Assembly: GCA_963555995.3 (NCBI GenBank)
Contig: OY821641.1
Location: 160,001-224,000 of the forward strand
DNA length: 64,000 bases
Source: Vicinamibacteria bacterium
GTDB taxonomy: Bacteria; Acidobacteriota; Vicinamibacteria; Marinacidobacterales; Marinacidobacteraceae
Reading direction: 5' to 3'
Position 1 is the stretch's first letter. Each line of letters opens with the position of its first letter. The notes below the pieces were generated by a model. The model ran no database searches and was not told the DNA's origin. It saw only the letters and a list, made by a program, of their open reading frames with translations. Shown here piece after piece: positions 2,539-39,703 of this stretch. The translations under genes and the position numbers were made by a program.

Positions 2539-3585
2539 ATGGTCCGCCCCTTCCGCTGGGACCCCGAGCGCAAGGTCCTCCACCTGCTGGATCAGCGCCG
2601 CCTCCCGTCCGAGGAGGTCTGGATCGAGTGCTTCGAGGCGCACGAGGTCGCGGACGCCATCCGTGACATGGCGGTCCGAGGGGCGCCGGCCATCGGCATC
2701 ACAGCCGCCTACGCGGTGGTGATCGGGTTCGCCCGTGGCGGCGGGGACTCGCCGGTCTCCCGGTTCGAGGACTTGGCGGCCGCACTGCTGAATACCCGGC
2801 CCACCGCCGTCAATCTGCGCGCCGCCATCGCGCGGATGCGTGCCCGGTTGGAATCGCTTCATGCCCCTTCGGCCCTGGAGCGGGTTCGCGGTCTTGAGGA
2901 TGAGGCGGACTGCATCGCCGCCGAGGACCTGCAGGCCAACCGCCGCCTCAGCCTGCTCGGGGCGAGCCTCCTGCCGGATGAAGGGCCGGCGCGCGTCCTG
3001 ACCCACTGCAACGCCGGGAGCCTTGCCACCTCCGGGTACGGGACCGCCCTCGGCATCGTCCGGGCGCTGGCCGAGTCCGGCCGTGAGGTCGAGGTGTTCG
3101 CTCCCGAGACCCGCCCCTATCTCCAGGGCGCCCGGCTCACCGCGTGGGAGCTGATGGCGGACGGAATCCCGGTCACCCTCGTCACCGACGGGATGGTCGG
3201 GTCCCTGCTCGCGGGTGGGGACATGGATGTGGTGGTCGTGGGCGCCGACCGGATCGCGGCGAACGGGGATTCGGCCAACAAGATCGGCACCTACCAGGCC
3301 GCGGTCCTCGCGAAGGAGCACGGCGTGCCGTTCCTGGTGGCCGCGCCCTTTTCGAGCGTGGACCTCGGGACGCCAACCGGTGCGGAGATCCCCATCGAGG
3401 AACGCCGCCCCGAGGAAATCGTCGAGATCGCCGGGAGACGGATCGCCCCGGAGGGCGTTCCCGTCTGGAATCCGGCCTTCGACGTGACCCCGGCGCGGTA
3501 CATCACGGCCATCGTCACGGAGCGCGGCATCGCCCGCCCGCCGTTCACCGAGTCGCTGAAAAACCTTGCGGCTCTGCACACCTGA
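2539..3585 (+). CDS. mtnA: S-methyl-5-thioribose-1-phosphate isomerase
   Basis: VRGAPAIG, TRPTAVNL, THCNAGSLAT, ETRPYLQGARLT, NKIGTY, NPAFDVTP. Confidence 0.97.
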   Translation: MVRPFRWDPERKVLHLLDQRRLPSEEVWIECFEAHEVADAIRDMAVRGAPAIGITAAYAVVIGFARGGGDSPVSRFEDLAAALLNTRPTAVNLRAAIARMRARLESLHAPSALERVRGLEDEADCIAAEDLQANRRLSLLGASLLPDEGPARVLTHCNAGSLATSGYGTALGIVRALAESGREVEVFAPETRPYLQGARLTAWELMADGIPVTLVTDGMVGSLLAGGDMDVVVVGADRIAANGDSANKIGTYQAAVLAKEHGVPFLVAAPFSSVDLGTPTGAEIPIEERRPEEIVEIAGRRIAPEGVPVWNPAFDVTPARYITAIVTERGIARPPFTESLKNLAALHT

Positions 3586-3636
3586 TGAATGCAATTTGAT
3601 AGCATGACGGTTTCAGAACGCCGTGGAGGTGTTGTC

Positions 3637-3873
3637 ATGGGCAGCCTTACGATCCGAAATCTGGACGACCATGTGATCGAGGCGCTGAAGGCGGAGGCCA
3701 GGGCGAACGACCGTTCGATGGAGGCCGAGGCCCGGCGCGCGCTGACGGAGCGCTTTGACCGGATCCAGCGTATGGTGGAGTTCCGGGAATACACCGACGC
3801 GCTCCGCCGGCGCACCGAAGGGATTCCCCAGACGGACAGCGTCGAGCTGCTGCGCGAAGACCGTGACCGGTGA
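3637..3873 (+). CDS. FitA-like ribbon-helix-helix antitoxin
   Basis: GGAGG then ATG; MGSLTIRNLDD...RSMEAEAR; C-terminal DSVELLREDR; overlaps PIN gene. Confidence 0.85.
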   Translation: MGSLTIRNLDDHVIEALKAEARANDRSMEAEARRALTERFDRIQRMVEFREYTDALRRRTEGIPQTDSVELLREDRDR

Positions 3874-4622
3874 GGTTCACGGTTGACGCCAGCGTCGTCG
3901 TCAAGTGGTTTGTCTCCGAGGAGCTGACCGAGAACGCAACGTTGTTGCGTTCCCATCGGCTGGAGTTGCACGCGCCCGACCTGGTGTTCGCCGAGTTTGC
4001 GAACGCTTGTTGGAAGAAGTTCCGCAGGGGGGAAATCACCGACATTCGCCAACGTCTGCGGGCCATAGAGCGCCTGCCCCAGCGCATCACCATGCACTCG
4101 CTCGGGAATCTTGCCTTTCGTGGAGCCGAGATCTCGCTGGCGCTCGATCACCCGGTGTACGACTGTCTCTACCTTGCCTGCGCCGAAGCGACCGCATCGC
4201 AGCTCGTCACGGCCGACCACAGGTTCGTGAACAAGGTGCGGGCGCGCGCTCCGGGGCTTCCGGTTCGTTACCTCGGCGACGAGGACTTCGCGGCCGACAT
4301 CGGCGCGGCGGCGGTGGCGCCGGTGATCGCCCGCGCGACGGTGGCGGAGCTTGCAGACGCGTACGATCTGCTGTCCGCCACGGGAGAGCAAGCCGCCTCG
4401 CTTGCGCGCAACCGCTTGGGAGCCCGGCTGGACGCGCTCTCCCCGGAAGAGCGCATTGACCTCCTCGCCTTGGCCCGGTTCGGCCAACCCGGTGAACCCG
4501 ACTGGACGTTCTGTCACGAAGCCGCCTGTTCCGAGGTGGCCGGCGCTGACGCGGCCTACCTGATCCACGGCGGCGCGTTCTGGAGGCGCGGCATGGAGCG
4601 CCTCTTCGACGCCATTCCCTGA
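3870..4622 (+). CDS. vapC: PIN-domain (VapC) toxin with extra C-terminal domain
   Basis: VDASVVVKW, E..N, YDCLYLA, LVTAD; about 110 extra C-terminal residues. Confidence 0.85.
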   Translation: MRFTVDASVVVKWFVSEELTENATLLRSHRLELHAPDLVFAEFANACWKKFRRGEITDIRQRLRAIERLPQRITMHSLGNLAFRGAEISLALDHPVYDCLYLACAEATASQLVTADHRFVNKVRARAPGLPVRYLGDEDFAADIGAAAVAPVIARATVAELADAYDLLSATGEQAASLARNRLGARLDALSPEERIDLLALARFGQPGEPDWTFCHEAACSEVAGADAAYLIHGGAFWRRGMERLFDAIP

Positions 4623-4628
4623 CCCCCG

Positions 4629-5693
4629 ATGCTCATCCTCGGGATCGAGACCTCCTGCGACGAGACCTCGGCTGCCGTGGTCGAGGACGGCCGGCGCATC
4701 CTCTCCAACGTGGTGTCGTCCCAGATCGCCGAGCACGCCCGCTTCGGCGGGGTGGTTCCCGAGATCGCCTCCCGCCAGCACCTGCTGAGCCTCTCGCCGG
4801 TGGTGCGGCAAGCGCTGAGCGAGGCCAAGGTCGGCCTCGACGACATCGAGGCGGTCGCGGTGACGAGCGGTCCCGGCCTGATCGGGGCGCTGCTCGCCGG
4901 GGTCTCCTTCGCCAAGGCGTTCGCCTTCGCCCGCGGGATTCCGCTGGTGGGCGTGGACCACATCGAGGGGCACATCCGCGCCTGCTACCTCGAAGGGGAC
5001 GAGGTGCCGCACCCCGCGCTCGCGCTCGTCGTCTCAGGGGGCCATACGAACCTGTTCCTGATGGAGATCGAAGGCTCCTACCGGCTGCTCGGCAAGACCC
5101 GCGACGACGCCGCCGGCGAGGCGTACGACAAGGTCGCGAAGCGGCTCGGGCTTGGCTATCCGGGAGGCCCGATCCTCGACCGCCTGGCGCAGCGAGGCGA
5201 TGCGAGCCGCCAGGTGTTCTCGCTCCCGCACTTTTCCGACGGGGCAAGGCTGGACTTCAGTTTCTCGGGCCTCAAGACCCAGGTCCTCCGGCTCATCGAG
5301 CACGAGGGCATCGAGCCGCTCGCCGACGGCGAGGACCCGTTCGACCGCGAGGACCTCCGGGATCTGGCGGCCAGCTTCCAGTCGGCGGTGGTCCGCGCCC
5401 TGCGCCGGTCGGTGGACCGGGCGCTGCGCATGTTCGAAGCGAAGGCCGTGCTGCTGACGGGCGGGGTCGCCGCCAACTCGGCCCTGCGGGCCAACTTCCA
5501 GGCGCTCGGCGAAGAGCGCGGCCTGCCCGTCTTCTATCCGAGCATCGCCCTCTCCACCGACAACGCCGCCATGATCGCCGCCGCCGGCCACCTGGCGCTC
5601 CTCCGCGGCGAGACGGCGGGTCCCGAGCTGACGGCAGACACCGAGCTGCGGCTGGGAGAGTCCGGGCCGCGCCGCTCCCGGCGTCACCGCTGA
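4629..5693 (+). CDS. tsaD: tRNA N6-threonylcarbamoyltransferase
   Basis: GIETSCDET, GGVVPEIASRQH, HIEGH, VSGGHT, DDAAGEAYDK, GGVAAN, TDNAAMI. Confidence 0.98.
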   Translation: MLILGIETSCDETSAAVVEDGRRILSNVVSSQIAEHARFGGVVPEIASRQHLLSLSPVVRQALSEAKVGLDDIEAVAVTSGPGLIGALLAGVSFAKAFAFARGIPLVGVDHIEGHIRACYLEGDEVPHPALALVVSGGHTNLFLMEIEGSYRLLGKTRDDAAGEAYDKVAKRLGLGYPGGPILDRLAQRGDASRQVFSLPHFSDGARLDFSFSGLKTQVLRLIEHEGIEPLADGEDPFDREDLRDLAASFQSAVVRALRRSVDRALRMFEAKAVLLTGGVAANSALRANFQALGEERGLPVFYPSIALSTDNAAMIAAAGHLALLRGETAGPELTADTELRLGESGPRRSRRHR

Positions 5694-5701
5694 CCTTCAA
5701 C

Positions 5702-7270
5702 GTGAGGGAAACGCCGCCCGACCTCGGCCGGGTCACGGCCGTCTATCGCGTCCAGCGCGAAGCCGTCGCGTCGGAAGACTTGGCGCGGCTCATCGCCATC
5801 GAACAGACCGTCGAGATTCCCGAGGCGCTGATTCCGCCGGGGAAGATCCGCGACGAGGTCGTCGGGCGGGTGGAATCCGTGGTACCGGACCCGGCGGTTC
5901 CGGGCGCCAGCCGCATCACCATCAGCTACGGGGCAGAACTGGCGGCAGATCTTTTCGGCCTGCTCGCGGTCGCGATCGGCAACGCGCCGATGTACGGCGG
6001 AGTGCGGCTCGTCGAGCTGCAACCCCCGCGGGCGCTGCTCGAAACGCTGCCGGGGCCCAACCACGGCGTCGAAGGAGTACGGCGGCTATGCGGCGTGCTG
6101 GGACGGCCGCTCCTGGCCACCGCGCTCAAGCCACAGGGCTCAAGCGTCGCCGAACTGGCCTCCATCGGGGAGGCCTTCGCGCGCGGCGGCGGCGACCTGG
6201 TGAAGGACGACCAGAACCTGACCGATGACTTCGAGGCGTTCCGCGACCGGGTCACGGCGTGCGCGGAGGCCGTGGATCGCGGCAACCAGGCCACCGGCCG
6301 CCGGTGCCTCTACCTCCCGCACGCCGGCGCCCGCGCCGAGGAACTCGAACGGTACGTCGAGTTCGTCGCCGAAGCCGGGCTTCCCGGCGTCCTCGTCTGC
6401 CCGATGATCACCGGGCTCGACACGATGCGCGCCCTGGCGGAGCGCTATCCGCTGATCTTCATGGCGCATCCCTCCCTCACCGGGGCGTACACCCACGCCC
6501 GCGGCCACGGGGTGGCCCACGAGGTCCTCCTGGGGACCCTGTTCCGGCTGGCGGGCGCCGACATCTCGGTGTTCCCGGACGCGGGCGGGCGGTTCCAATA
6601 CACCGAGGCCGAGTGCGCGGGAATCACCGGGAGGCTCCGCGAACCGCTTGGCGCGCTCCGCCCGGCCTGGCCGTCGCCGGCCGGCGGGATGGGTCCGGCG
6701 GACGTCGGCCGCATCGGCGACACCTACGGCCCGGACACGGTGCTGCTCATCGGCGGCGCCCTGCTCGGCCATCCCGAGGGCATCGAGGCGGGAACCCGTC
6801 GGATCCTCGACCGCATTCGCGAGGTCCACCCGGAGGTTTCCATCCAGCCCTCCGCCCCGCCGCGGCCTTCCCTGCCAGAACCGCGGCGGCTCGCCTTCCG
6901 GCGGGACTGGAACTGGGAGGGCCGCGACAGCTCGCCCTACAAGGACGCGGGCGACCTCACCTTCCGGGGGGTGCGCCGGGTGGAACTCGTGGGCAAGTTC
7001 GGGGAGCGCACCCGCTCGGACCTGCGCTACTTCGAGGTCGAACCCGGCGGCCACACGAGCCTGGAGAGGCACCTCCACACCCATGTCGTGATCGGCGCGC
7101 GCGGGGAAGGCGTCCTCGTGCTCGGAGACCGCCGGATGCCGCTCAGGCAACTCGACGTGGCCTGCGTCGGCCCGCTGGAGGCCCACCAGTTGCGAAACGA
7201 GACGGAGGAGCCGTTCGGGTTCTTCTGCGTCGTGGACCACGACCGCGACCGCCCGCTGCGGGTGGGTTGA
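5702..7270 (+). CDS. RuBisCO-like protein (form IV) fused to a C-terminal cupin; candidate MTRu-1-P 1,3-isomerase / MTXu-5-P methylsulfurylase
   Basis: IEQTVE, ALKPQG, KDDQNL, MAHPS, RLAGAD, PAGGM, IGG in the RLP part; Pro-rich linker; LRYFEVEPGGHTSLERHLHTH...HQLRN...FGFFCVVDHDRDRP cupin from about 6880. Confidence 0.88.
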   Translation: MRETPPDLGRVTAVYRVQREAVASEDLARLIAIEQTVEIPEALIPPGKIRDEVVGRVESVVPDPAVPGASRITISYGAELAADLFGLLAVAIGNAPMYGGVRLVELQPPRALLETLPGPNHGVEGVRRLCGVLGRPLLATALKPQGSSVAELASIGEAFARGGGDLVKDDQNLTDDFEAFRDRVTACAEAVDRGNQATGRRCLYLPHAGARAEELERYVEFVAEAGLPGVLVCPMITGLDTMRALAERYPLIFMAHPSLTGAYTHARGHGVAHEVLLGTLFRLAGADISVFPDAGGRFQYTEAECAGITGRLREPLGALRPAWPSPAGGMGPADVGRIGDTYGPDTVLLIGGALLGHPEGIEAGTRRILDRIREVHPEVSIQPSAPPRPSLPEPRRLAFRRDWNWEGRDSSPYKDAGDLTFRGVRRVELVGKFGERTRSDLRYFEVEPGGHTSLERHLHTHVVIGARGEGVLVLGDRRMPLRQLDVACVGPLEAHQLRNETEEPFGFFCVVDHDRDRPLRVG

Positions 7271-7343: not shown

Positions 7344-7826
7344 TCACGACGGATCCAACGTGCTCATGAAGCGTCCGAACCGCTCGAGGTCGCGCGTCAC
7401 CAGCGGGTGGGCCTGGCGCAGCTTGGCCACGAGGAAGTCCAGGCGATCCCAGTCGTATTCGAGCTCGAAGTAGTAGCGCTTGAAGTGGCGGAAGCGGAGC
7501 AGTTCCGAGAGCGGGGGAAGGGCTTCTTCCGATACCGCCGCCGCCCGCACGCCCTGAATCTCCAGAGTCATCCGCTGCAGCAGGTCCTGATGCCAGCGGT
7601 CGGAGCCGAGATCGTTCTCGAAGTGCTGCGAGATCCGCAGGAAGATGGTCTCCAGGCAGGTGTAGTAGTTCTCCAGCAGGCCGGCGACGATCAGGGCCGA
7701 CACCGGCGTCCTGCCGAGCCGGACGACCTCGTCGGTGAGCGCACTCTCGAGGGTTCCGCGAACCGTTTCGAGTCGCTTCCGATGTTGTTCGACGACGGCC
7801 GTGAGTTCACGGATCGAGGCGTTCAT
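7344..7826 (-). CDS. HepT-like HEPN ribonuclease toxin
   Basis: LENYYTCLE.IF.RI, WHQDLL, LLRFRHFKRYY; directly downstream of MNT gene. Confidence 0.82.
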   Translation of the reverse strand: MNASIRELTAVVEQHRKRLETVRGTLESALTDEVVRLGRTPVSALIVAGLLENYYTCLETIFLRISQHFENDLGSDRWHQDLLQRMTLEIQGVRAAAVSEEALPPLSELLRFRHFKRYYFELEYDWDRLDFLVAKLRQAHPLVTRDLERFGRFMSTLDPS

Positions 7827-8196
7827 GGACCAGTGCTCCCCGCGTGCGAATGCGCTCGGCGATGTCCTCCGGCACCTTCTCCAGTTCGATCACATCCACC
7901 GGCAGCGTCGTTCCGTCCATCGCGATGCCGAGCGTCCGAAAGAACTCGGCCGGCCCGCGCAGTCCCTCGACGGCGATGTCTATGTCCGAGATTTCGCTGA
8001 AGCGCGACCGATCGAGCAGCGATCCCCACTGGTAGATGCGGCGCGGGTTCACCTGTTCCGCGATCGCCGCGATGATCGCGCCGGCGTCGCGCGTGGCCCG
8101 CTCGAACCGTTTCTGGATGCGCGCGCGCCGGCGCCGTTCCTTTGCCGCCTGGAAGGCCCGGGCCCGATCAAGATCGATGCCAAACTCGTCTTGCAC
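7807..8196 (-). CDS. Minimal nucleotidyltransferase (MNT) antitoxin
   Basis: YQWGS...SDIDIAVEG, VDVIELE; GTG start at 8196 chosen inside ORF 7807..8397. Confidence 0.85.
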   Translation of the reverse strand: MQDEFGIDLDRARAFQAAKERRRRARIQKRFERATRDAGAIIAAIAEQVNPRRIYQWGSLLDRSRFSEISDIDIAVEGLRGPAEFFRTLGIAMDGTTLPVDVIELEKVPEDIAERIRTRGALVHERLDP

Positions 8197-8332
8197 CTTT
8201 CCGCAGTATAAGCGGCGGCGGCGGGCTCCCCGGACGATTGGCCCCGGTGGTCCGGGCCGCAGCCGCGAACCGCGCCCGCGCTCGGTGATATAACGCCGAA
8301 CCGCCCCAACCCCCCCGTCCCAAGGAGGCGTC

Positions 8333-10279
8333 ATGGCGAACTCATCCGGCAGCACCCGCGAGTTCACGCTGCGGGCACTTCTCCTCGGCCTCTTCATGGC
8401 CGTCGTGCTGGGAGCGGCGAACGCCTATCTCGGCATCCGCGCCGGCCAGACGGTTGCCGCCACCTTCCCGGCGGCCGTCGTCTCCATGGTCGTCATCCGG
8501 GGTCTCTTCAAGGGCAGCCTGCTTGAAGAGAACATCGCCCGCACCACGGCCTCGGTGGGCGAGGCGCTGGCCGCCGGGGCGATCTTCACGCTGCCGGCGT
8601 TCCTGATGGCGGGCGCCTGGGAGGAGTTCAACTACTGGGAGAGCACCCTGCTGATGCTCATCGGCGGCCTGCTCGGCATCCTGTTCGTGGTCATCCTGCG
8701 GCGGAGCATGGTGACCGACCCCGAGCTGCCGTTCCCCGAGTCGGTCGCCGCCGCCGAGATCCACCGCGCCGGACAGGGCGCGAGCGGCGGCCGGCTGCTC
8801 TTCCAGATGATGGGCGCCGGCGCGCTGATCGAGGTCCTCAAGAACTCGAAGGGCATCCAGCTCTTCACCGACCGGATTTCGGGGGCCCTCGGTTACGGCT
8901 CCTTCCAGGGGTCGGTCGCCGTCGGGGGCCAGTCCTTCGGGGCGGCGGCCCAGCCGGGGGTGCTGCCTTTTTCGACCCCGGCGGCGTCGCCCGCCTATCT
9001 CGGGGTGGGCTACATCATCGGGTTCCGGTTGTCGGCGCTCGTCTTCTCCGGCGGGGTCTTCGCCTGGTGGTTCATGATCCCGGCGGTCCTCTTCTTCAAT
9101 CCGGAGTTCGCCGACGCGGGAAGGCTGGCGGCGGCGGGCGCCGACTGGAGCGCGGTCAGCGGCGTGGTCTGGGCCGAGCTCGTACGGCCGATCGCGGTGG
9201 GAGCCATGATCGCCGGGGCGGTCTGGACGCTGCTCCGGATGCGCAAGTCGCTCGGGGAAGGGCTCAAGCGGTCCGTCGCCGAGCTGAGGACGGGGCACCC
9301 GGCCGGATCGGGCGACGAGAAGGACCGCGACATCCCCTTCAGCTGGACGACCGCGGGCGTGGTCGCCCTGATCGTCCCGACCTTCTTCCTCTACAACTAC
9401 TACACCGGGCAGCCGCTCGGGGCGCTCGGTTCGGCGATCGTGATGATCGTGGCCGGGTTCTTCTTCTCGGCGGTGGCCGGCTATCTCGTCGGCGTGGTCG
9501 GGAGTTCCTCGAACCCGGTTTCCGGACTCACGATCTCGACCCTGCTGCTGGCGGCGCTGCTGATGACTTTCCTCGGGGTCACCGGAACGGAGGGCGTGAC
9601 CGCGGTGCTGGGGGTGGCGGCCGTCGTCTGCTGCGCTTGCGCGGTCGCCGGGGACATGCTGCAGGACCTGAAGGTGGGCCAGATCCTCGGCGGAACGCCG
9701 TTCCGCATGGAATGGGCGGAGATCATCGGCGTGGTCTTCGCGTCCATGTTCCTGGTCCTGCCGATGATGCTGCTCCACGAGGGGGACATCGCCGCGGGCG
9801 GCATCGGGATCGGCGGCGAAGAGCTGCCGGCCCCGCAGGCGGGGCTGATGGCGCTGCTCTCCCAGGGCATCGTCGGCGGCGACATGCGCTGGCCGCTCGT
9901 GGTCTTCGGGATCGCCCTCTGTCTCTTCCTGATCCTGATCCAGGCGCCCTCCCCGATGCTGATCGCGGTGGGGATGTACCTGCCGCTCCAGACCACCTTC
10001 GCGATCTTCGTCGGCGGTTTCTTCCGCTGGCTGAGCGACCGTCAGATGGCCAAGCTTCCGGCTGAACGCCGGACGCTCGGAGAAAGCGCCGGGACGCTCA
10101 TCGCCTCCGGCCTCATCGCGGGCGAGGCGCTGATGGGCGTCGGGCTCTCCGGATTCGCGGTCGCGGAATTCCAGTTGCCGGTGCTGGTGTCCACGCCCTC
10201 CGGCATCCCGGGATTCCTGGTGTTCGTCGTGCTCGGGTGGTTCCTGATCCGCATCCCGCTCCGCCACGCGCGGGGGTAG
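8333..10279 (+). CDS. OPT-family oligopeptide transporter
   Basis: NAYLGIRAG, ENIART.AS.GE, LPFPES, SSNPVSG, QDLKVG, SGLIAGEAL; AAGGAGG RBS. Confidence 0.93.
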   Translation: MANSSGSTREFTLRALLLGLFMAVVLGAANAYLGIRAGQTVAATFPAAVVSMVVIRGLFKGSLLEENIARTTASVGEALAAGAIFTLPAFLMAGAWEEFNYWESTLLMLIGGLLGILFVVILRRSMVTDPELPFPESVAAAEIHRAGQGASGGRLLFQMMGAGALIEVLKNSKGIQLFTDRISGALGYGSFQGSVAVGGQSFGAAAQPGVLPFSTPAASPAYLGVGYIIGFRLSALVFSGGVFAWWFMIPAVLFFNPEFADAGRLAAAGADWSAVSGVVWAELVRPIAVGAMIAGAVWTLLRMRKSLGEGLKRSVAELRTGHPAGSGDEKDRDIPFSWTTAGVVALIVPTFFLYNYYTGQPLGALGSAIVMIVAGFFFSAVAGYLVGVVGSSSNPVSGLTISTLLLAALLMTFLGVTGTEGVTAVLGVAAVVCCACAVAGDMLQDLKVGQILGGTPFRMEWAEIIGVVFASMFLVLPMMLLHEGDIAAGGIGIGGEELPAPQAGLMALLSQGIVGGDMRWPLVVFGIALCLFLILIQAPSPMLIAVGMYLPLQTTFAIFVGGFFRWLSDRQMAKLPAERRTLGESAGTLIASGLIAGEALMGVGLSGFAVAEFQLPVLVSTPSGIPGFLVFVVLGWFLIRIPLRHARG

Positions 10280-10565: not shown

Positions 10566-11297
10566 CTACTGCGAAAGGCGGAGCGCGGCGAACAGAAGTC
10601 CGGCCACCCCGATGATGGCGACCATGAGTCGCCGCTCGGCCGCGGCGACCGCGTTCGTCACATCGGCCTTGGTGGCGAAGTCCCTCCGGATGTTCGCCTC
10701 GGTGCGCTCCAGGTCGTCGCGCATCGTTGTCCGGACGTCTTCCAGATCCTTCCGCATCGTTGTCCGGGTGTCTTCCAGGTCCTTCCGGAGCATCGCGACA
10801 TCGGCCTTGGTGGCGGTGTCCCTCCGGATGTTCGCCTCGGTGCGCTCCAGGTCGTCGCGCATCGTTGTCCGGACGTCTTCCAGGTCCTTCCGGAGCATCG
10901 CGACATCGGCCTTGGTGGCGGTGTCCTTCCGGATGTTCGCCTCGGTGCGCTCCAGGTCGTCGCGCATCGTTGTCCGGGTGTCTTCCAGGTCCTTCCGGAG
11001 CATCACGACATCGGCCTTGGTGGCGGTGTCCTTCCGGATGTTCGCCTCGGTGCGCTCCAGGTCGTCGCGCATCGTTGTCCGGACGTCTTCCAGGTCCTTC
11101 CGCATCGTTGTCCGGATGTCTTCCAGATCCTCGCGGATGGCCGCCACGTCCGCCTTCGAAGCGACGTTGCGGATCCATGGACCCATGTGCTCCTCGGCCA
11201 GAACCTCGGCCAGCCCCTCCTCCATGCCGGCCTCGGTGAGGCGCTTCACGAACCGGTGGCTGTCGAACACTGCTTGTGCAACCTGTGCGGGAGTCAT
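10566..11297 (-). CDS. DUF1640/CCDC90-like coiled-coil protein with internal repeats and C-terminal TM anchor
   Basis: FDSHRFVKRLTEAGMEEGLAE head, ATKADV motif, repeat stalk, hydrophobic tail. Confidence 0.8.
   Translation of the reverse strand: MTPAQVAQAVFDSHRFVKRLTEAGMEEGLAEVLAEEHMGPWIRNVASKADVAAIREDLEDIRTTMRKDLEDVRTTMRDDLERTEANIRKDTATKADVVMLRKDLEDTRTTMRDDLERTEANIRKDTATKADVAMLRKDLEDVRTTMRDDLERTEANIRRDTATKADVAMLRKDLEDTRTTMRKDLEDVRTTMRDDLERTEANIRRDFATKADVTNAVAAAERRLMVAIIGVAGLLFAALRLSQ
10655..11165. repeat. Intragenic tandem repeat, 105 bp units with 33 bp subunits
   Basis: TCGGCCTTGGTGGCG recurs at 10663, 10801, 10906 and 11011 (spacings 138, 105, 105). Confidence 0.92.
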
Positions 11298-19057: not shown

Positions 19058-22000
19058 TCAGGCGTTGGTGGACGCCGTGAGGAGCAGGATGGCGGCGATG
19101 CGGCGGGTGGTGTTGGTGAAGTGGTGGACCTCTTCGGGGCGGAGGGGGCGGTCGAGGACGGAGCGCTCGCGGTAGGAGAGCCACTTCTTGAGGACCTGGT
19201 AGCCGCCGAGGCGGTAGTTCCAGACGGCGGCGGGGACGTTCCGCCAGTGGGCGCGGTCGTTCAGGTGGACGTCGAGGGTGGTTTCGCCGAGGGTGGGGAG
19301 GGCGGGGGCGAGGGTGGCGCGTTCGGTGGGGGTGAAGGGGCGCTCGGCGGCGCGGCCGGTGCCGGGCATCACGGCGTCGCCGGCGCCGAAGTGTCCCCAG
19401 CCGGCGGTGACGGCGAAGTCGGCGCCGGACATGTTGCCGCCGTCCGTGGTGGCGGGGACGGCGAGGGCGGCGAGTTCGGGACGGAGGGTCCCCTCGGTGA
19501 CGCCGGGAGCCGGGGCGTCGGGGTCGAGCAGCCGGGCCAGTTCCCGGCCGCGGGCGGCGGACCGCTTCAGTTCGGCCGCAGCGCCTTCGGTGTCGCCGTC
19601 CGGCCAGCCGGGAAGGGGAACGCGGGGCCATTCCATGCGGAGCGCCCCGGCGTTGGCCGCGTGGTAGGCGGGATCGTGGAGGGTGGCGAGCGCGTGGAAG
19701 AAGAGATCGTCGGAACTCACGTCGGCGCCTTGCAGATACCGGAGCGCGTCGCCCGACAGGTTGGGCCGGGACGGTTCGGCGCCCCTCGCGTCCGCTCCCA
19801 GACCGCGGAGGTACTGCGGGAAGAAGCTGGAGAGTCCGTTGCCGAAGTTGTCGGCGAGGGCCGTGACGAAGGTTCCCCGGCAAAAGTCTTCCCGCGCCTC
19901 CTTCTCACGGGCTTCGATCCACGAATTCCCGGGGAAGACCTGCGAGTGGTAGTCAGGGCGCTTTCTGTCAAGGAGTTCGGTCTCGCCTTCCCAATAGAGC
20001 CACCGGATGTCGAAGGGACGGTAGGCGAAGCGGACGAAGCCGGACTCGGACGGTCCCCCACGCGAGAGGAGCGCGTCCCGCACCGTCCGCGCGGCGAAAC
20101 GTCCCGTGGTCCTCATCACCGCCGGATAGCGCCGGGCGATCTCATCGTGGCTGAGGCGCGCGTCGAAATAGTCTGTGACTCGGGCCTTCAGCCGATCCAG
20201 ATCCACATCCACCAGGAACCCGTCGCGACTGGTCTTCACGCCCGGAAAGGCCATGGGAAACAGTTCGGGGAGCGACGGCCACGAGAACCAGTTCTCGCTC
20301 ACGACCAGCGGGACGAATGGCAGACCGAGGGGCAGTGACGGGCGAACCCCTCCATAGACCGGCGGAGACTCCGCGAGGTCGGCGAGCTTCGTCCGGCCCC
20401 ACAGGTGCCGGAACGCGATCTTGCGGACCGGCGCATGCTCGGCGCGACGCACGAGGGTGGTGACAGCGGTGCCCACCTGGATGCCGACCGGATCCTCCGG
20501 CGTCGAGAACACGCTCGGGTCCGGCGCCCCGTCCGGCGTCGTCTTCCCGGTCCGGTACTTGTCGCCGTTGAGGCAGTCCACCCGGATCGCGTCGAACGCC
20601 TCCAGGTACCGCTCCCGCATCCCGGTGAACGACAGCCCGTCCAGCCACGAGTAGTTCGAGATGAAACAGACCACGCCGCGCCCGGTCTTCTCGACGATGC
20701 GCCGCTCGGCCATGCGGAAGAAACGGACGTACACGTCGTTGAGTCCCTGACCCTCGGGCTGTCGCACCTCCTTCGTGGTCCGGTAGGCGTCCGAGAGCTC
20801 CCGCTCCTCCTCCACCGCCACGCCCGCGAACCCGTTGTACGGCGGGTTCCCGAGGATCACCAGGATCGGCGTCTCCTGCTTCACCCGCTCCGCCCGGTCG
20901 CGCTCCTCCGCGAGTTCCGGGAACAGCAGCGGCTTCCGCTCCTTCGCCTCCCACCCGGTGAGCGCGTTCGTCAGGAACACCTGCGCCCGCTCCGCGCCGT
21001 CCTCGGACAGCGGCGCGTCGAGGTCCTGCATCGTCAGCCCGACCTGCAGGTGGGCCACCACGAACGGCGCGGGCATGATCTCGAAGCCGAAGACGCGCCG
21101 CGTGGCGGCCTCCTTCACCCGCGCCCCGACGAGCGCCCCGAGGCCCTTGCCTTCGAGGTTGGACCCGATGCGGCGCAGCACCTCGGCGAGGTAGGCCCCG
21201 GTCCCGCAGCACGGGTCGAGCACGTACACGTTCTCCGCCGCCAGCCCGTCGGCGATCCCGAGGTCGTCCCGGAGCGCCCGGTCCACCCGGGCGACCATGT
21301 AGCGGACGATCTCGTTCGGGGTGTACCAGACGCCGAGCTGCTTCCGCAGGCCGGGATCGAAGGCCGCGAGGAACGGCTCGTAGAAATAGGTGACCGCCTC
21401 TCCTTCCCGGAAGCGCTCGAAGAACGCCTTCCGGTCCACGCGGTCGAGGGCGGCGTCCGTCCAGTCGAGGACTTCGACGAGGCCGAGCGGCTGCAGGCGG
21501 CCGGGATCGGAGAGTTGTTGGAAGAGCGCCCGCAGCACCGGCGCGCGCAGGTGCCAGACCGCCTTCCGCCATTCGAAGCGGGCCTCCGCCGGACCGGCGC
21601 GCGCCCACAGCACCCACGCGGAGAAGACCCCGTAGAAGAGTGTCTGGACCAGCGTCGAGTGGAAGAAGCGTTTCCCGCGTTCGCCCTCGAACCGGATCCC
21701 GAGCGCCTCTTCGAGCGCGGCGCGGAGCGGCTCGAACGCGGCGGCCTCGTCGCTGGCCTCGACCCGCGAGAGCCCGTCCCGCGCGTAGGAGGCGAGCAGC
21801 CAGGCGAGGTCCCGCGGCTCGGCGATCGCCGCCCGCCAGGACAGCGCGCGGGTGAGGTACTCGACGAGACGCTCCCCGATCTCGCGGGCGAAGGCGCGGG
21901 GCTTCCCGAGCTTCCGGTGGAACTCGCCCGCGCTCTCCGCCAGCCGGAAGGTTTCGAGGGTGCGTTGCCCTTGGGCCGGGTCGGGGCCGACCAGGGCGAA

Positions 22001-22384
22001 CTCGCGCAGGTTGGTGACGAGCACGAGCCGGTAGCGCGCCCAGTAGCGGGCGACCTGTTCCCCGGCGGCGACGACCGCCAGTTCGTCCGGGTCCGGCTTG
22101 ACTTCCACGACGCCGCGCTCGGGAATCTGCCCGGTGCGCGGCCGGCCGCGCTGGACCTGCTTCGCCGAGTAGAGCCCGATGTCGGGGTGGCCCGCGCCCT
22201 GGTCGGCGAGCTCGGGGACGCAGAAGACCTTCGGCTTCAGACCGCCGCCCACCGCGTTCAGCAGGTTCACCAGCGCGGTGTAGCGGGACCGCTCGCCGGT
22301 CGCGCCGCCGGAGGCGCCGAGGCGGGCGAGGTCGCTCAGGTAGTGCTCGACGGCGGTGGTGAGGCGGGCCTTGGGAGGGGTCAC
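19058..22384 (-). CDS. Single-chain restriction-modification enzyme (nuclease, N6-adenine MTase, TRD; type IIG/IIL or helicase-less ISP-like)
   Basis: PDIGLY...VVEVK nuclease, FYEPFLAAFD, GVWYTP, LDPCCGTG, ILGNPPY, YRPFDIRWLY, LGGYQVLKKWLSYR; GTG start at 22384 inferred. Confidence 0.9.
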   Translation of the reverse strand: MTPPKARLTTAVEHYLSDLARLGASGGATGERSRYTALVNLLNAVGGGLKPKVFCVPELADQGAGHPDIGLYSAKQVQRGRPRTGQIPERGVVEVKPDPDELAVVAAGEQVARYWARYRLVLVTNLREFALVGPDPAQGQRTLETFRLAESAGEFHRKLGKPRAFAREIGERLVEYLTRALSWRAAIAEPRDLAWLLASYARDGLSRVEASDEAAAFEPLRAALEEALGIRFEGERGKRFFHSTLVQTLFYGVFSAWVLWARAGPAEARFEWRKAVWHLRAPVLRALFQQLSDPGRLQPLGLVEVLDWTDAALDRVDRKAFFERFREGEAVTYFYEPFLAAFDPGLRKQLGVWYTPNEIVRYMVARVDRALRDDLGIADGLAAENVYVLDPCCGTGAYLAEVLRRIGSNLEGKGLGALVGARVKEAATRRVFGFEIMPAPFVVAHLQVGLTMQDLDAPLSEDGAERAQVFLTNALTGWEAKERKPLLFPELAEERDRAERVKQETPILVILGNPPYNGFAGVAVEEERELSDAYRTTKEVRQPEGQGLNDVYVRFFRMAERRIVEKTGRGVVCFISNYSWLDGLSFTGMRERYLEAFDAIRVDCLNGDKYRTGKTTPDGAPDPSVFSTPEDPVGIQVGTAVTTLVRRAEHAPVRKIAFRHLWGRTKLADLAESPPVYGGVRPSLPLGLPFVPLVVSENWFSWPSLPELFPMAFPGVKTSRDGFLVDVDLDRLKARVTDYFDARLSHDEIARRYPAVMRTTGRFAARTVRDALLSRGGPSESGFVRFAYRPFDIRWLYWEGETELLDRKRPDYHSQVFPGNSWIEAREKEAREDFCRGTFVTALADNFGNGLSSFFPQYLRGLGADARGAEPSRPNLSGDALRYLQGADVSSDDLFFHALATLHDPAYHAANAGALRMEWPRVPLPGWPDGDTEGAAAELKRSAARGRELARLLDPDAPAPGVTEGTLRPELAALAVPATTDGGNMSGADFAVTAGWGHFGAGDAVMPGTGRAAERPFTPTERATLAPALPTLGETTLDVHLNDRAHWRNVPAAVWNYRLGGYQVLKKWLSYRERSVLDRPLRPEEVHHFTNTTRRIAAILLLTASTNA

Positions 22385-27663: not shown

Positions 27664-28962
27664 GTGACCTCTCGGGTGCGGATTCTCGGCCTCTTCGAAA
27701 ACGGCCGCCGCCTTGGCAGACTCCTCCGGACCTCGTCCGGGCTGTCGCTGGAATACGACCCCGAGTGGCTTTCGTGGGATGGCGCGACGCCGGTGTCGCT
27801 CTCGCTGCCGCTGGGCCCCGCGGCACATCGGGGAGAGCGGGTGCTCCGCTTCCTCGACAACCTCCTTCCGGATTCCGAGGGAATGCGAGCCCGGTTGGCG
27901 TCGCGCGTGGACGCGCCGGACACCCATCCGTTCACGCTGCTGGAGTGTCTGGGCCGATGCTCCGCCGGCGCGCTGACCTTCGTTCCCGACGGGGAGGACC
28001 CGGGCGCGGCAGGCGCCGCGTCGGGGCGGCCGTTGTCCGATGCGGAGGTCGGAACGCTGCTCGCGCAACTCGACCGGCGCCCCCTTGGAGTCGGCCCGCG
28101 CTTTCGCATCTCGCTCGCGGGGGCGCAGCGCAAGACCGCCCTCCTGTTGCAGGACGGCGTTTGGCGCCTACCCCTCGGGTTCACGCCGACGACCCACATC
28201 CTGAAGCCGCAGACCGGCTCGGTGATGGGGGTGGACTTCAGCCGAAGCGTCGAGAACGAGTTCCTCTGCCTGAGGCTGGCCTCGGCGTTCGGGCTCGCGG
28301 TGGCGCGAGCCCGGATCGCGGACTTTGCGGAAGCGCGCGCCCTCGTGGTGGAGCGTTTCGACCGGCGCTGGACGGAGGATGGACGGCTGCTGCGAATACC
28401 GCACGAGGACTGCGCCCAGGCGCTCGGCGTCCCGACCCGGCGGAAATACGAGATGGACGGGGGACCGGGGTTCGGGGAGCTGCTGGGTCTGCTGGAAGGA
28501 TCGGTGCATCCGGACGCCGACCGGCGCAGTTTCCTGCGCGCGCAGATCGTTTTCTGGCTGCTCGCGGCGGTGGACGGCCACGCCAAGAACTACAGCCTCC
28601 GGCTGCTCCCCGCGGGACAGTTCCGGCTGGCGCCGCTCTACGACATCGTCTCGGTGCAGCCGGGCCTCTCCCGCGGGGAGCTCCCGGCGGACGACGCGAT
28701 GATGTCGCTCGCGGTCGGGGATGCGGGCCTCCGGGGGCCGGACGACATCGGGCCGGAACACTTCTTCCAGAGCGCGAAGGCGGCCGGGGTTCCCGCGCGC
28801 GTTGTTCAGCGAATCTTCGCGGAACTGATCGAAACCCGGGCCGGGGCCTTCGAGGCCGTCCGCGCGAGCCTGCCGGAGGACTTCCCGCGAGCGATGGAGG
28901 CTGCCATCTTCGGTGCCGTCACCGGCCACCTGCACCGGATCGAGCGCTATCTGGCCGGATGA
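27664..28962 (+). CDS. hipA: HipA family Ser/Thr kinase toxin
   Basis: SLSLP, DNLLPD, ISLAGAQRK, THILKP, ERFDR, DGHAKNYS, LAPLYD. Confidence 0.95.
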   Translation: MTSRVRILGLFENGRRLGRLLRTSSGLSLEYDPEWLSWDGATPVSLSLPLGPAAHRGERVLRFLDNLLPDSEGMRARLASRVDAPDTHPFTLLECLGRCSAGALTFVPDGEDPGAAGAASGRPLSDAEVGTLLAQLDRRPLGVGPRFRISLAGAQRKTALLLQDGVWRLPLGFTPTTHILKPQTGSVMGVDFSRSVENEFLCLRLASAFGLAVARARIADFAEARALVVERFDRRWTEDGRLLRIPHEDCAQALGVPTRRKYEMDGGPGFGELLGLLEGSVHPDADRRSFLRAQIVFWLLAAVDGHAKNYSLRLLPAGQFRLAPLYDIVSVQPGLSRGELPADDAMMSLAVGDAGLRGPDDIGPEHFFQSAKAAGVPARVVQRIFAELIETRAGAFEAVRASLPEDFPRAMEAAIFGAVTGHLHRIERYLAG

Positions 28963-37983: not shown

Positions 37984-38622
37984 ATGCCGCGCCCGGCTGC
38001 CCCGAAGATCTACCACATCGTCCATCTGGACCGGCTCGACTCGATCGTTTCGGATGGATGTCTCTGGTCCGATGCGGTGATGGTGAACCGTCCGCAAGTC
38101 GGCACGGGCATCGGAATGACCTCCATCAAGCAGAGTCGGCGGACTCGCCCCTTGAGCAGTCACCCGGGGCTCAACGTCGGCGATTGCGTGCCGTTCTATT
38201 TTTGTCCGCGCTCCGTCATGCTCTACCTGATCCACATGGCGAACTACGATGGCCTCACCTACCGCGGTGGACAGAAGCCGATCCTCCATTTGGAAGCAGA
38301 CCTCCATGAGGTGGTGATTTGGGCGAACGCGCATCAACGGAAATGGGCCTTTACTACTTCCAACGCGGCGTCCGGGTACTTTGCAGACTACGCCGATATG
38401 ACGAAGCTCGACGAGATCGATTGGGAGGCCGTGGAAGCCCACGTGTGGCGGGGTCGCCGCGAAAGCAAGCAGGCAGAGTTTCTCCTTGAGACCTTTTTCC
38501 CGTGGAGTCTGGTTCGCCGCATCGGGGTGCAAAACGGGTCCGTTCACAGGGCCGTGTGCGATACCGTGACGAGCGCCTCTCACCAGCCGCAGGTGGAGAT
38601 CAGGGGCGATTGGTACTATTGA
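37984..38622 (+). CDS. darT: DarT ssDNA ADP-ribosyltransferase toxin (DUF4433)
   Basis: IYHIVH, VPFYFCPRSVMLY, FTTSNA, KQAEFL. Confidence 0.95.
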   Translation: MPRPAAPKIYHIVHLDRLDSIVSDGCLWSDAVMVNRPQVGTGIGMTSIKQSRRTRPLSSHPGLNVGDCVPFYFCPRSVMLYLIHMANYDGLTYRGGQKPILHLEADLHEVVIWANAHQRKWAFTTSNAASGYFADYADMTKLDEIDWEAVEAHVWRGRRESKQAEFLLETFFPWSLVRRIGVQNGSVHRAVCDTVTSASHQPQVEIRGDWYY

Positions 38623-38641
38623 TGCCCGGAGCGCGCTTGAG

Positions 38642-39703
38642 GTGATCCACTTCAAGACGGGGGACATCCTCGCCGAGGACGTCGAAGCCCTGGTCAACAC
38701 GGTGAATTGCGTCGGGGTCATGGGACGCGGAATTGCGCTCCAGTTCAAGAAGCGATTCCCGGACAACTTCCGGGCCTACTCGCAAGCCTGCCGGCGCGAG
38801 GAGGTGCAGCCCGGCCGGATGTTCGTCTTCGAAACCCGCTGCCTCGCCAACCCCCGATACGTCATCAACTTCCCCACGAAGCGGCATTGGCGCGCCAACA
38901 GTCGGCTTGACGACATTGATGCGGGGCTCGTTGACCTCAGCCGGCAGATCCGGGAGCGCGGTATCCGCTCGGTCGCCATCCCGCCTCTCGGTAGTGGCCT
39001 GGGCGGCCTGGACTGGCCTACCGTCCGCTTGCGCATTGAAGAGGCGCTGGGAGGTGTGGAGGACGTGCAGGTTGTCGTCTTCGAGCCTGGCGCGGTGCCC
39101 GCGGCAGATCGGAGGGTGCGTAATCCTCGGGTACCCAAAATGACCGCCGGCCGGGCGGCCCTCGTGGGATTGGTCGATCGCTATCGGAAGGGGCTGCTTG
39201 ACCCGTTCGTGACCCTGCTGGAAGTTCACAAGTTGATGTATTTCATGCAGGTCGCCGGAGAGCCCTTGAGGTTGCGATTCGCCAAAGGGCCTTTCGGTCC
39301 ATACGCGGACAACCTGCGGCACGTCCTGCACAAGGTCGAGGGCCACTTCCTGTCGGGCTACGCCGACGGCGGCGATGCGCCGGACAAACCGCTGGAACTC
39401 GTGCCGGGCGCCGTCGAGCGCGCCGCTGCCGTCCTCGAACGCTTTCCGGAGACCAGAACGCGCTTCGACAGAGTTGCGGAGCTTGTCGAAGGCTTCGAAT
39501 CGCCCTTCGGGCTGGAACTGCTATCGACGGTCCACTGGATCCTTGACCGCGACGGTTCCCCGGGGGCGGAGGATCTCGTTGCGCAGACCTACCGGTGGAA
39601 CGAGCGAAAAAAGCAGTTTTCGCCGCGGCAGATTGCGTTGGCGGCCGAAGTGCTGCGCAGCAAGGGCTGGGTCGCCGGCGCTGCGGCAACTCCGCAGCAC
39701 TGA
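38642..39703 (+). CDS. darG: DarG macrodomain antitoxin
   Basis: LVNTVNCVGVMGRGIALQFK, INFPTKRHW, PPLGSGLGGLDW, GFESPFGLELLSTVHW. Confidence 0.95.
   Translation: MIHFKTGDILAEDVEALVNTVNCVGVMGRGIALQFKKRFPDNFRAYSQACRREEVQPGRMFVFETRCLANPRYVINFPTKRHWRANSRLDDIDAGLVDLSRQIRERGIRSVAIPPLGSGLGGLDWPTVRLRIEEALGGVEDVQVVVFEPGAVPAADRRVRNPRVPKMTAGRAALVGLVDRYRKGLLDPFVTLLEVHKLMYFMQVAGEPLRLRFAKGPFGPYADNLRHVLHKVEGHFLSGYADGGDAPDKPLELVPGAVERAAAVLERFPETRTRFDRVAELVEGFESPFGLELLSTVHWILDRDGSPGAEDLVAQTYRWNERKKQFSPRQIALAAEVLRSKGWVAGAAATPQH

Follow-up and report, generated by a model that had tools for sequence, protein, structure and literature searches.

A fused RuBisCO-like protein and cupin as a candidate one-chain core of the methylthioadenosine-isoprenoid shunt in a bacterium of the class Vicinamibacteria

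The window analysed here comprises 64,000 nucleotides of contig OY821641.1 (positions 160,001 to 224,000, forward strand) from assembly GCA_963555995.3 of a Vicinamibacteria bacterium belonging to the Marinacidobacteraceae (Acidobacteriota). It carries, downstream of mtnA, a gene in which the barrel of a RuBisCO-like protein (RLP) is joined by a proline-rich linker to a cupin (Table 1). The preliminary description of the window had reported a single open reading frame (ORF) of this composition, and we recovered it with every quoted motif: the frame starts with GTG, is free of internal stops and encodes 522 amino acids. The protein matches the Pfam families RuBisCO_large (residues 124–366) and Cupin_2 (residues 443–511), and its cupin contains the motifs ERHLHTH (455–461), FFCVV (507–511) and RDRP (515–518). 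An AF2 model shows two confidently predicted domains with a mean pLDDT of 92 and a pTM of 0.86. RNA runs carrying the locus were not found among the matches listed; small shares present in sponge and coral runs are not taken as evidence of a habitat. [quoted passage not shown]

Table 1. Coordinates of the fusion gene, its parts and neighbouring genes in the window (MTRu-1-P, 5-methylthioribulose-1-phosphate; MTXu-5-P, 1-methylthioxylulose-5-phosphate).
Feature	Position	Strand	Remarks
RLP-cupin fusion gene	5702..7270	+	522 aa; Pfam domains, homologues, AF2 model
RuBisCO-like domain, DeepYkr-related, predicted 1,3-isomerase	5729..6832	+	residues about 10-377; nearest 3qfw
KDDQ motif	6203..6214	+	residues 168-171; KDDH in 3qfw, KDDE in enolase-type 4nas
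Pro-rich linker	6833..6886	+	residues about 378-395
Cupin domain, predicted MTXu-5-P methylsulfurylase	6887..7261	+	ExHxHxH...H metal motif; Cys509 at 7226-7228
mtnA, methylthioribose-1-phosphate isomerase, makes presumed substrate MTRu-1-P	2539..3585	+	TIGR00512 423.6 bits, cut-off 279
FitA-like ribbon-helix-helix antitoxin, variable insert	3589..3873	+	PF22513
PIN-domain toxin with DUF3775-like tail, variable insert	3870..4622	+	PF01850; PF12616 weak
tsaD (t6A synthesis), housekeeping neighbour	4629..5693	+	TIGR03723 over cut-off; ends 8 bp before fusion
OPT-family transporter, conserved neighbour	8333..10279	+	PF03169; in 18 loci

Among solved structures the barrel is closest to 3qfw, titled a RuBisCO-like protein of Rhodopseudomonas palustris, which we infer to be RLP1 (2qyg is titled rlp2 of this organism). 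This entry ranks first by sequence (212.6 bits, next entry 159), by profile (345.7 bits, next 224.3) and in Foldseek, and in the VIA comparison it shows the lowest root-mean-square deviation (rmsd, 1.8) and the highest identity (38%) at a Z-score of 44.7. Barrel and 3qfw have the motifs EQxVE, KPxG (ALKPQG), AHP, FPxxGGRF and PAGG in common. The KDDQ motif, which had been described as replacing KDDE, is present, but since 3qfw has KDDH the relevant change is from His to Gln and not from Glu to Gln. A profile search with the cupin returned 3ibm, 3jzv (Rru_A2000) and 3kgz at 131–159 bits (next entry 54), and the same group, also on top by sequence, fills Foldseek ranks 1–4. Cys509 aligns with a cysteine of Rru_A2000 that is reportedly catalytic. 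These best solved matches are the cupins of Halorhodospira halophila, Rhodospirillum rubrum (Rru_A2000) and R. palustris, all of which appear as shunt-bearing species in the available part of PMC4958253. For both domains the proposed kinship with shunt enzymes is thus borne out among solved structures.

A protein search gave 1,407 relatives among 7,994 candidates, and motifs were counted in the best 120 of these 1,407. Both Pfam labels were assigned to 119 of the 120. Barrel residues K143, K168, D170, H256 and R297 and cupin residues E455, H457, H459, H461, H495 and C509 are kept in 120/120; KDD is followed by Q in 115 and by N in 5, and the spacing from barrel to cupin is 63–72 residues throughout. 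The nearest named loci are 83–93% identical and titled Acidobacteria, Vicinamibacteria or Ca. Marinacidobacterium. The fusion is not confined to the host lineage: besides Acidobacteriota, fused forms occur in Gammaproteobacteria, Planctomycetota and Fibrobacterota, at least four phyla in all. We classified 79 loci from GTDB genomes, using + strand frames only, as fused (42), split (8), RLP only (11) or cupin only (18). The split RLP and cupin genes keep the domain order of the fusion in 7/79 loci, while in the eighth pair the cupin lies further upstream; Terrarubrum also has a split pair in the order of the fusion. A survey of 301 genomes of the class, in which four candidates per genome were scored, placed the fused form only in the host family and split pairs in two other families.

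A quick tree was built from 93 RLP-domain rows, with R. rubrum and R. palustris sequences not among them. The 24 host-family sequences form one starred clade inside the KDDQ clade, which is nested among KDDH forms including split RLP-cupin pairs, away from the KDDE-bearing OiaX rows. On starred branches the fused state requires at least three changes. When a stand-alone RLP served as query, no R. rubrum or R. palustris protein was among the matches listed. KDDQ RLPs that stand alone, with no cupin next to them, from Elusimicrobiota and Wenzhouxiangella (loci L026, L032, L033, L035, L037), are nested among the fused forms, likely reflecting loss of the cupin.

The host genome (G000; 92.95% complete, 2 contigs) contains dxr, ispDF, ispG and ispH of the methylerythritol phosphate (MEP) pathway; a search by motif, not by profile, missed ispE. 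Also present are metK, mqnC, mqnE and two O-acetylhomoserine sulfhydrylases, both over the TIGR01326 cut-off. Neither dxs, for which three weak matches are dehydrogenase E1 subunits and a transketolase, nor 3-hydroxy-3-methylglutaryl-CoA (HMG-CoA) reductase was found in the genome. The same holds for a class II aldolase of the mtnB/ald2 type, so no competing consumer of MTRu-1-P is evident. Of the genes that the preliminary description had asked after, the MEP genes downstream of DXP are present and mtnB is absent.

In the proposed route MtnA would form MTRu-1-P, which the barrel would convert to MTXu-5-P. The cupin would then take the methylthio group off via Cys509 and pass it to a cellular thiol, yielding DXP and methanethiol, the former to be used by Dxr and the latter by either of the two sulfhydrylases. 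With regard to the thiol acceptor, a search of the genome by motif only gave no convincing gshB; egtB and egtD are present. The known shunt of R. rubrum (DeepYkr RLP Rru_A1998 and cupin Rru_A2000) and R. palustris (RPA2169 and RPA2170) employs both domains in the order seen in the fusion, and the host resembles these organisms in having mtnA, O-acetylhomoserine sulfhydrylases and the MEP pathway. According to the available sections of PMC5893883, RLP1 and cupin of R. palustris are active in vivo and RLP1 also in vitro, with a kcat of about 1.3 per s. The host differs by its single polypeptide, by KDDQ in place of the KDDH of 3qfw, by a cupin only about 35% identical and by the lack of a detectable MTA phosphorylase or S-adenosylmethionine (SAM) decarboxylase; it is also without dxs, whereas R. 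rubrum has the gene (PMC4334135).

Several findings weigh against assigning the fusion to the shunt. Fold scores do not separate the RLP subfamilies, and the enolase 2zvi exceeds 3qfw in Z-score (46.1 versus 44.7). The residue after KDD is Gln and not the His of 3qfw. The cupin is 35% identical to Rru_A2000 of R. rubrum (45/121 by hand count), which falls under the >45% that the accessible part of PMC5893883 uses as its working cut-off for this comparison. Judging from entry titles the TM1459 cupin has a cysteine as well (Cys106), and in 12 loci the same cupin family adjoins zinc dehydrogenases without an RLP; the cysteine alone is therefore not diagnostic. MTA phosphorylase (MtnP; TIGR01694) was detected in 0/28 family genomes versus 31/33 outside the family, methylthioribose kinase (MtnK) was not found in the host genome, and SAM decarboxylase was found in 0/5 genomes. 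The entry to the pathway is thus missing. Since the His after KDD, 45% cupin identity and MtnP are all lacking, we regard the fusion as a variant and not as a plain member of the shunt.

The only PF01048 gene of the host encodes a PunA-type purine nucleoside phosphorylase (PNP) and not MtnP. Candidates for the missing entry are nupC paired with punA (the phosphorylase gene lies at G000:C1:2123524-2124402), an amidohydrolase resembling MtaD (295511-296929), which scores below cut-off and apparently has a signal peptide, and a member of the YfiH family (about 2694883-2695482). As a best guess, methylthioribose-1-phosphate could arise through MtaD-like deamination, with NupC taking up the nucleoside and the adjacent PNP phosphorolysing it, or else through the YfiH-type protein. 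Pseudomonas aeruginosa is known to couple deamination with subsequent phosphorolysis (PMC6302742, in the part available). An mtnP-pfkB pair, which in relatives follows acyl-CoA dehydrogenase, meaB and epimerase genes (L103-L107), is cleanly missing at G000:C1:1929159-1931571. The futalosine genes mqnE and mqnC lie at G000:C1:79332-82541, and no gene for the MqnB/MTAN step is evident.

An alternative that we consider unlikely is that the main substrate in vivo is 5-deoxyribulose-1-phosphate derived from 5'-deoxyadenosine, which radical SAM enzymes release as a by-product. On its own the barrel would isomerise this sugar phosphate to DXP, and the cupin would be needed only for methylthio sugars from outside. 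The lack of SAM decarboxylase, and hence of polyamine-derived MTA, agrees with this proposal, as do 15 gene calls matching a radical-SAM-like motif (MqnC and MqnE included) and the cupin-less KDDQ RLPs of Wenzhouxiangella and Elusimicrobiota. Promiscuity of MtnA for 5-deoxyribose-1-phosphate is described in the part of PMC6302742 available. However, the metal ligands and the cysteine of the cupin are invariant in all 120 fusions counted, which implies a steady methylthio substrate, and the missing phosphorylase is equally a problem for a deoxyadenosine-fed route. Activity of an RLP on 5-deoxyribulose-1-phosphate has reportedly been observed.

Quite unlikely, in our estimate, is that the KDDQ clade has drifted towards a different sugar phosphate or chemistry and resembles the shunt through ancestry only. 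The exchange of His for Gln at a metal-ligand position that defines the starred clade (63 rows) would fit such a drift. Beyond the host family no metabolic neighbours of the fusion are conserved, and related KDDH RLPs on rhizobial plasmids adjoin split thiamine pyrophosphate (TPP) enzymes and have no cupin. On the other hand, there are fused KDDH forms with identical cupin motifs that branch basal to the KDDQ ones, and mtnA co-occurs with this RLP family in 34/35 genomes. The rhizobial operons (L134:1-5125 and L135:1-4107) read mtnK-mtnA-split TPP enzyme (transketolase-like)-RLP (KDDH), with mtnK seen in L134; the association of mtnA, TPP enzyme and RLP perhaps represents another fate for MTXu-5-P.

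Identity of the barrel with YkrW/MtnW, the 2,3-diketo-5-methylthiopentyl-1-phosphate enolase of classical methionine salvage in Bacillus and Geobacillus, is very improbable. That enzyme has the same fold (Z 45–46, rmsd 2.0–2.4) and also acts after MtnA, the enolase model PRK09549 is the top NCBIfam match of the barrel and 2zvi holds the highest VIA Z-score. Yet the barrel scores 196.6 bits against a cut-off of 409 for PRK09549 and 154.7 against 513.6 for a second model, is without KDDE, retains the glutamate of EQxVE that 4nas is without and has a cupin attached, and the genome has no MtnB to supply the substrate. That the fusion is an artefact of assembly or gene calling is hardly conceivable even though split pairs occur in other genomes, because homologues in independent assemblies carry both motif sets (42/79 loci from separate genomes and 25/28 family genomes are fused) and because depth over 6750-6923 is similar to the flanks in 4 runs of contigs, with no listed joint or loose end there. 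As to the support across the linker sought by the preliminary description, depth is even, although no contig bridging it was found among the matches listed for these runs.

Supply of DXP was considered in 61 relatives, 28 genomes of the host family and 33 from outside it. As kin are not independent, the following counts represent a few events only. A dxs match over cut-off was present in 1/61 relatives, while dxr and ispH were each found in 59/61; nearly the whole class sample (G001-G060) keeps dxr and ispH and is without dxs and HMG-CoA reductase. The fusion occurs in 25/61 relatives, 25/28 within the family and 0/33 outside. With dxs and HMG-CoA reductase not found and MEP genes kept, the fusion is the one recognisable DXP source of the host. 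A role as the sole source is nevertheless not supported by the distribution of dxs, fusion and dxr: 36/61 relatives are without the fusion and 60/61 without dxs, and 17/18 carriers of the fused form in other groups keep dxs. Two family members with single-contig genomes (G017, G022) are without both dxs and the fusion, and Luteitalea is listed as without Dxs and without the shunt. Close relatives manage without the fusion. The Dxs-less relatives without fusion indicate that an older DXP route exists, which may persist in the host, and the carriers that keep dxs indicate that the origin of the fusion does not lie in a replacement of Dxs. Among carriers of the RLP family in other groups a dxs match was found in 29/35.

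The available part of PMC10663253 reports a survey of 4,400 species in which 181 have the MEP pathway but no Dxs. The shunt has been put forward as a hypothetical Dxs substitute in Veillonella, Dialister and Rhodothermus marinus (in the portions available of PMC10663253 Table S2 and bioRxiv 10.1101/2021.05.17.444423), which like the host combine the MEP pathway minus Dxs with RLP and cupin. The host differs from them in that its genes are fused, that it belongs to the Acidobacteriota and that sister genomes without dxs and fusion provide natural controls. The Dxs bypass is therefore an idea already in print. We found no published RLP-cupin fusion in the literature searched; Erb 2012, Warlick 2012, North 2020, their supplements or the Warlick thesis may list one.

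As another DXP route we considered the zinc-dehydrogenase pair, but it was not found in G000, G017, G022, G020, G029 or G034, where the best matches were 27–34% identical and scored at most 227 bits versus 471–526 for full-length members. Stand-alone cupins beside one or two zinc dehydrogenases, with no RLP, occur in Nitrospirota, Desulfuromonadales, Binatia and others (L063-L065, L068, L070, L071, L073, L074, L076-L079), and a dxs match is missing in 5/15 cupin-only genomes searched. In the host, ispH adjoins a fused E1 alpha-beta thiamine diphosphate enzyme at G000:C1:2131832-2136029 (L142:1333-5530), as it does in L166-L173, L175 and L176, usually together with an acyl-CoA dehydrogenase. 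This linkage was seen in 10/16 fetched relatives (7/7 from two sister families, 3/6 from the own family and 0/3 from other orders). The enzyme is probably a branched-chain dehydrogenase and a candidate for a Dxs-like side activity.

A class II aldolase shows a pattern complementary to that of the fusion. It is present in 33/33 relatives outside the family and in 2/2 complete non-carriers inside, and in 4/25 fusion carriers, where it lies directly downstream of the fusion. All 61 relatives but one fragmented genome have one or the other. In R. palustris, MTRu-1-P can be used by either Ald2 or RLP1 (PMC5893883, available sections), and the pattern is suggestive of an exchange of the enzyme acting on the product of MtnA. 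It may be coincidence, since the aldolase is the enzyme of the ACI microcompartment, with shell genes following. Its match to Ald2/DrdA (6btd, 74 bits) ranks below three other aldolases, and no NCBIfam cut-off is reached. For the ACI microcompartment a role in carbohydrate breakdown has been proposed (PMC8217296, in the part available), and ACI is reported chiefly from subdivisions 4 and 6, where the Dxs-less Acidobacteria listed in the accessible part of PMC10663253 are also placed. The aldolase may act on MTRu-1-P or 5-deoxyribulose-1-phosphate. At the aldolase locus of G017 and G022 (L123, L124) the shell genes are lost and the bare aldolase is kept, as compared with L115, L117, L125-L127 and L132. 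The four fetched loci with both fusion and aldolase (L009, L013, L014, L021) form a KDDN subclade, in which the aldolase copy next to the fusion is 44–54% identical.

A far-reaching extension, which we regard as doubtful, holds that in the host family the fusion is the main or only DXP source, replaced the microcompartment aldolase that disposes of the product of MtnA and is fed by imported and deaminated nucleosides, for which reason MtnP was lost. All isoprenoids, such as menaquinone tails and undecaprenol, would then depend on salvage of SAM waste, and the family would offer a natural test of how Dxs-less bacteria make DXP. Because the proposed bypass fits into a single ORF that can be expressed, and this ORF stems from a host without Dxs, complementation of a dxs deletion would be simple. 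The protein could moreover show whether the RLP metal site accepts Gln or Asn instead of His, and a methanethiol-forming route would extend to Acidobacteriota, Planctomycetota and Fibrobacterota. The fusion per se is a routine joining of consecutive enzymes, and it is common in metagenomes.

The position of mtnA 2.1 kb upstream and co-oriented was confirmed (gap 2116 bp), but the two genes are not directly adjacent, being separated by the antitoxin, the toxin and tsaD. The mtnA copy is the sole one in the genome, and mtnA is found in 59/61 relatives. It lies within the fetched flank in 16/79 loci, all from close acidobacterial relatives; none of the fused loci of other groups has mtnA in its fetched flank. 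An atpE-mtnA-tsaD block is also present in 5/6 fetched relatives of other families (the sixth has mtnA-tsaD without atp genes) and in both family members without fusion. Proximity to mtnA, offered earlier as evidence for the pathway, is therefore inherited and says little. Better support comes from the unlinked mtnA match in 34/35 other-group genomes carrying this RLP family.

Among 14 close loci with mtnA and tsaD in the same order, the antitoxin-toxin pair is present in 9 and absent from 5. The OPT transporter also occurs in relatives without fusion (L096, L100, L101), and no remnant of the fusion was found between tsaD and the OPT gene of G017 and G022. Elsewhere in the host genome, two very long ORFs (~59 kb and ~48 kb), each carrying some ten enoyl-reductase-like domains, mark a giant modular polyketide synthase region (G000:C1:3320786-3427259, minus strand). 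The window contains further defence and toxin-antitoxin modules: a HepT/MNT pair directly after the fusion (7344-8397, minus strand), a type ISP restriction-modification system (19061-22384, minus strand), HipA (28033-28959, plus strand) and DarT/DarG (37984-39700, plus strand). At 10566-11297 on the minus strand it encodes a CCDC90-like coiled-coil protein of 243 amino acids with near-identical internal repeats.

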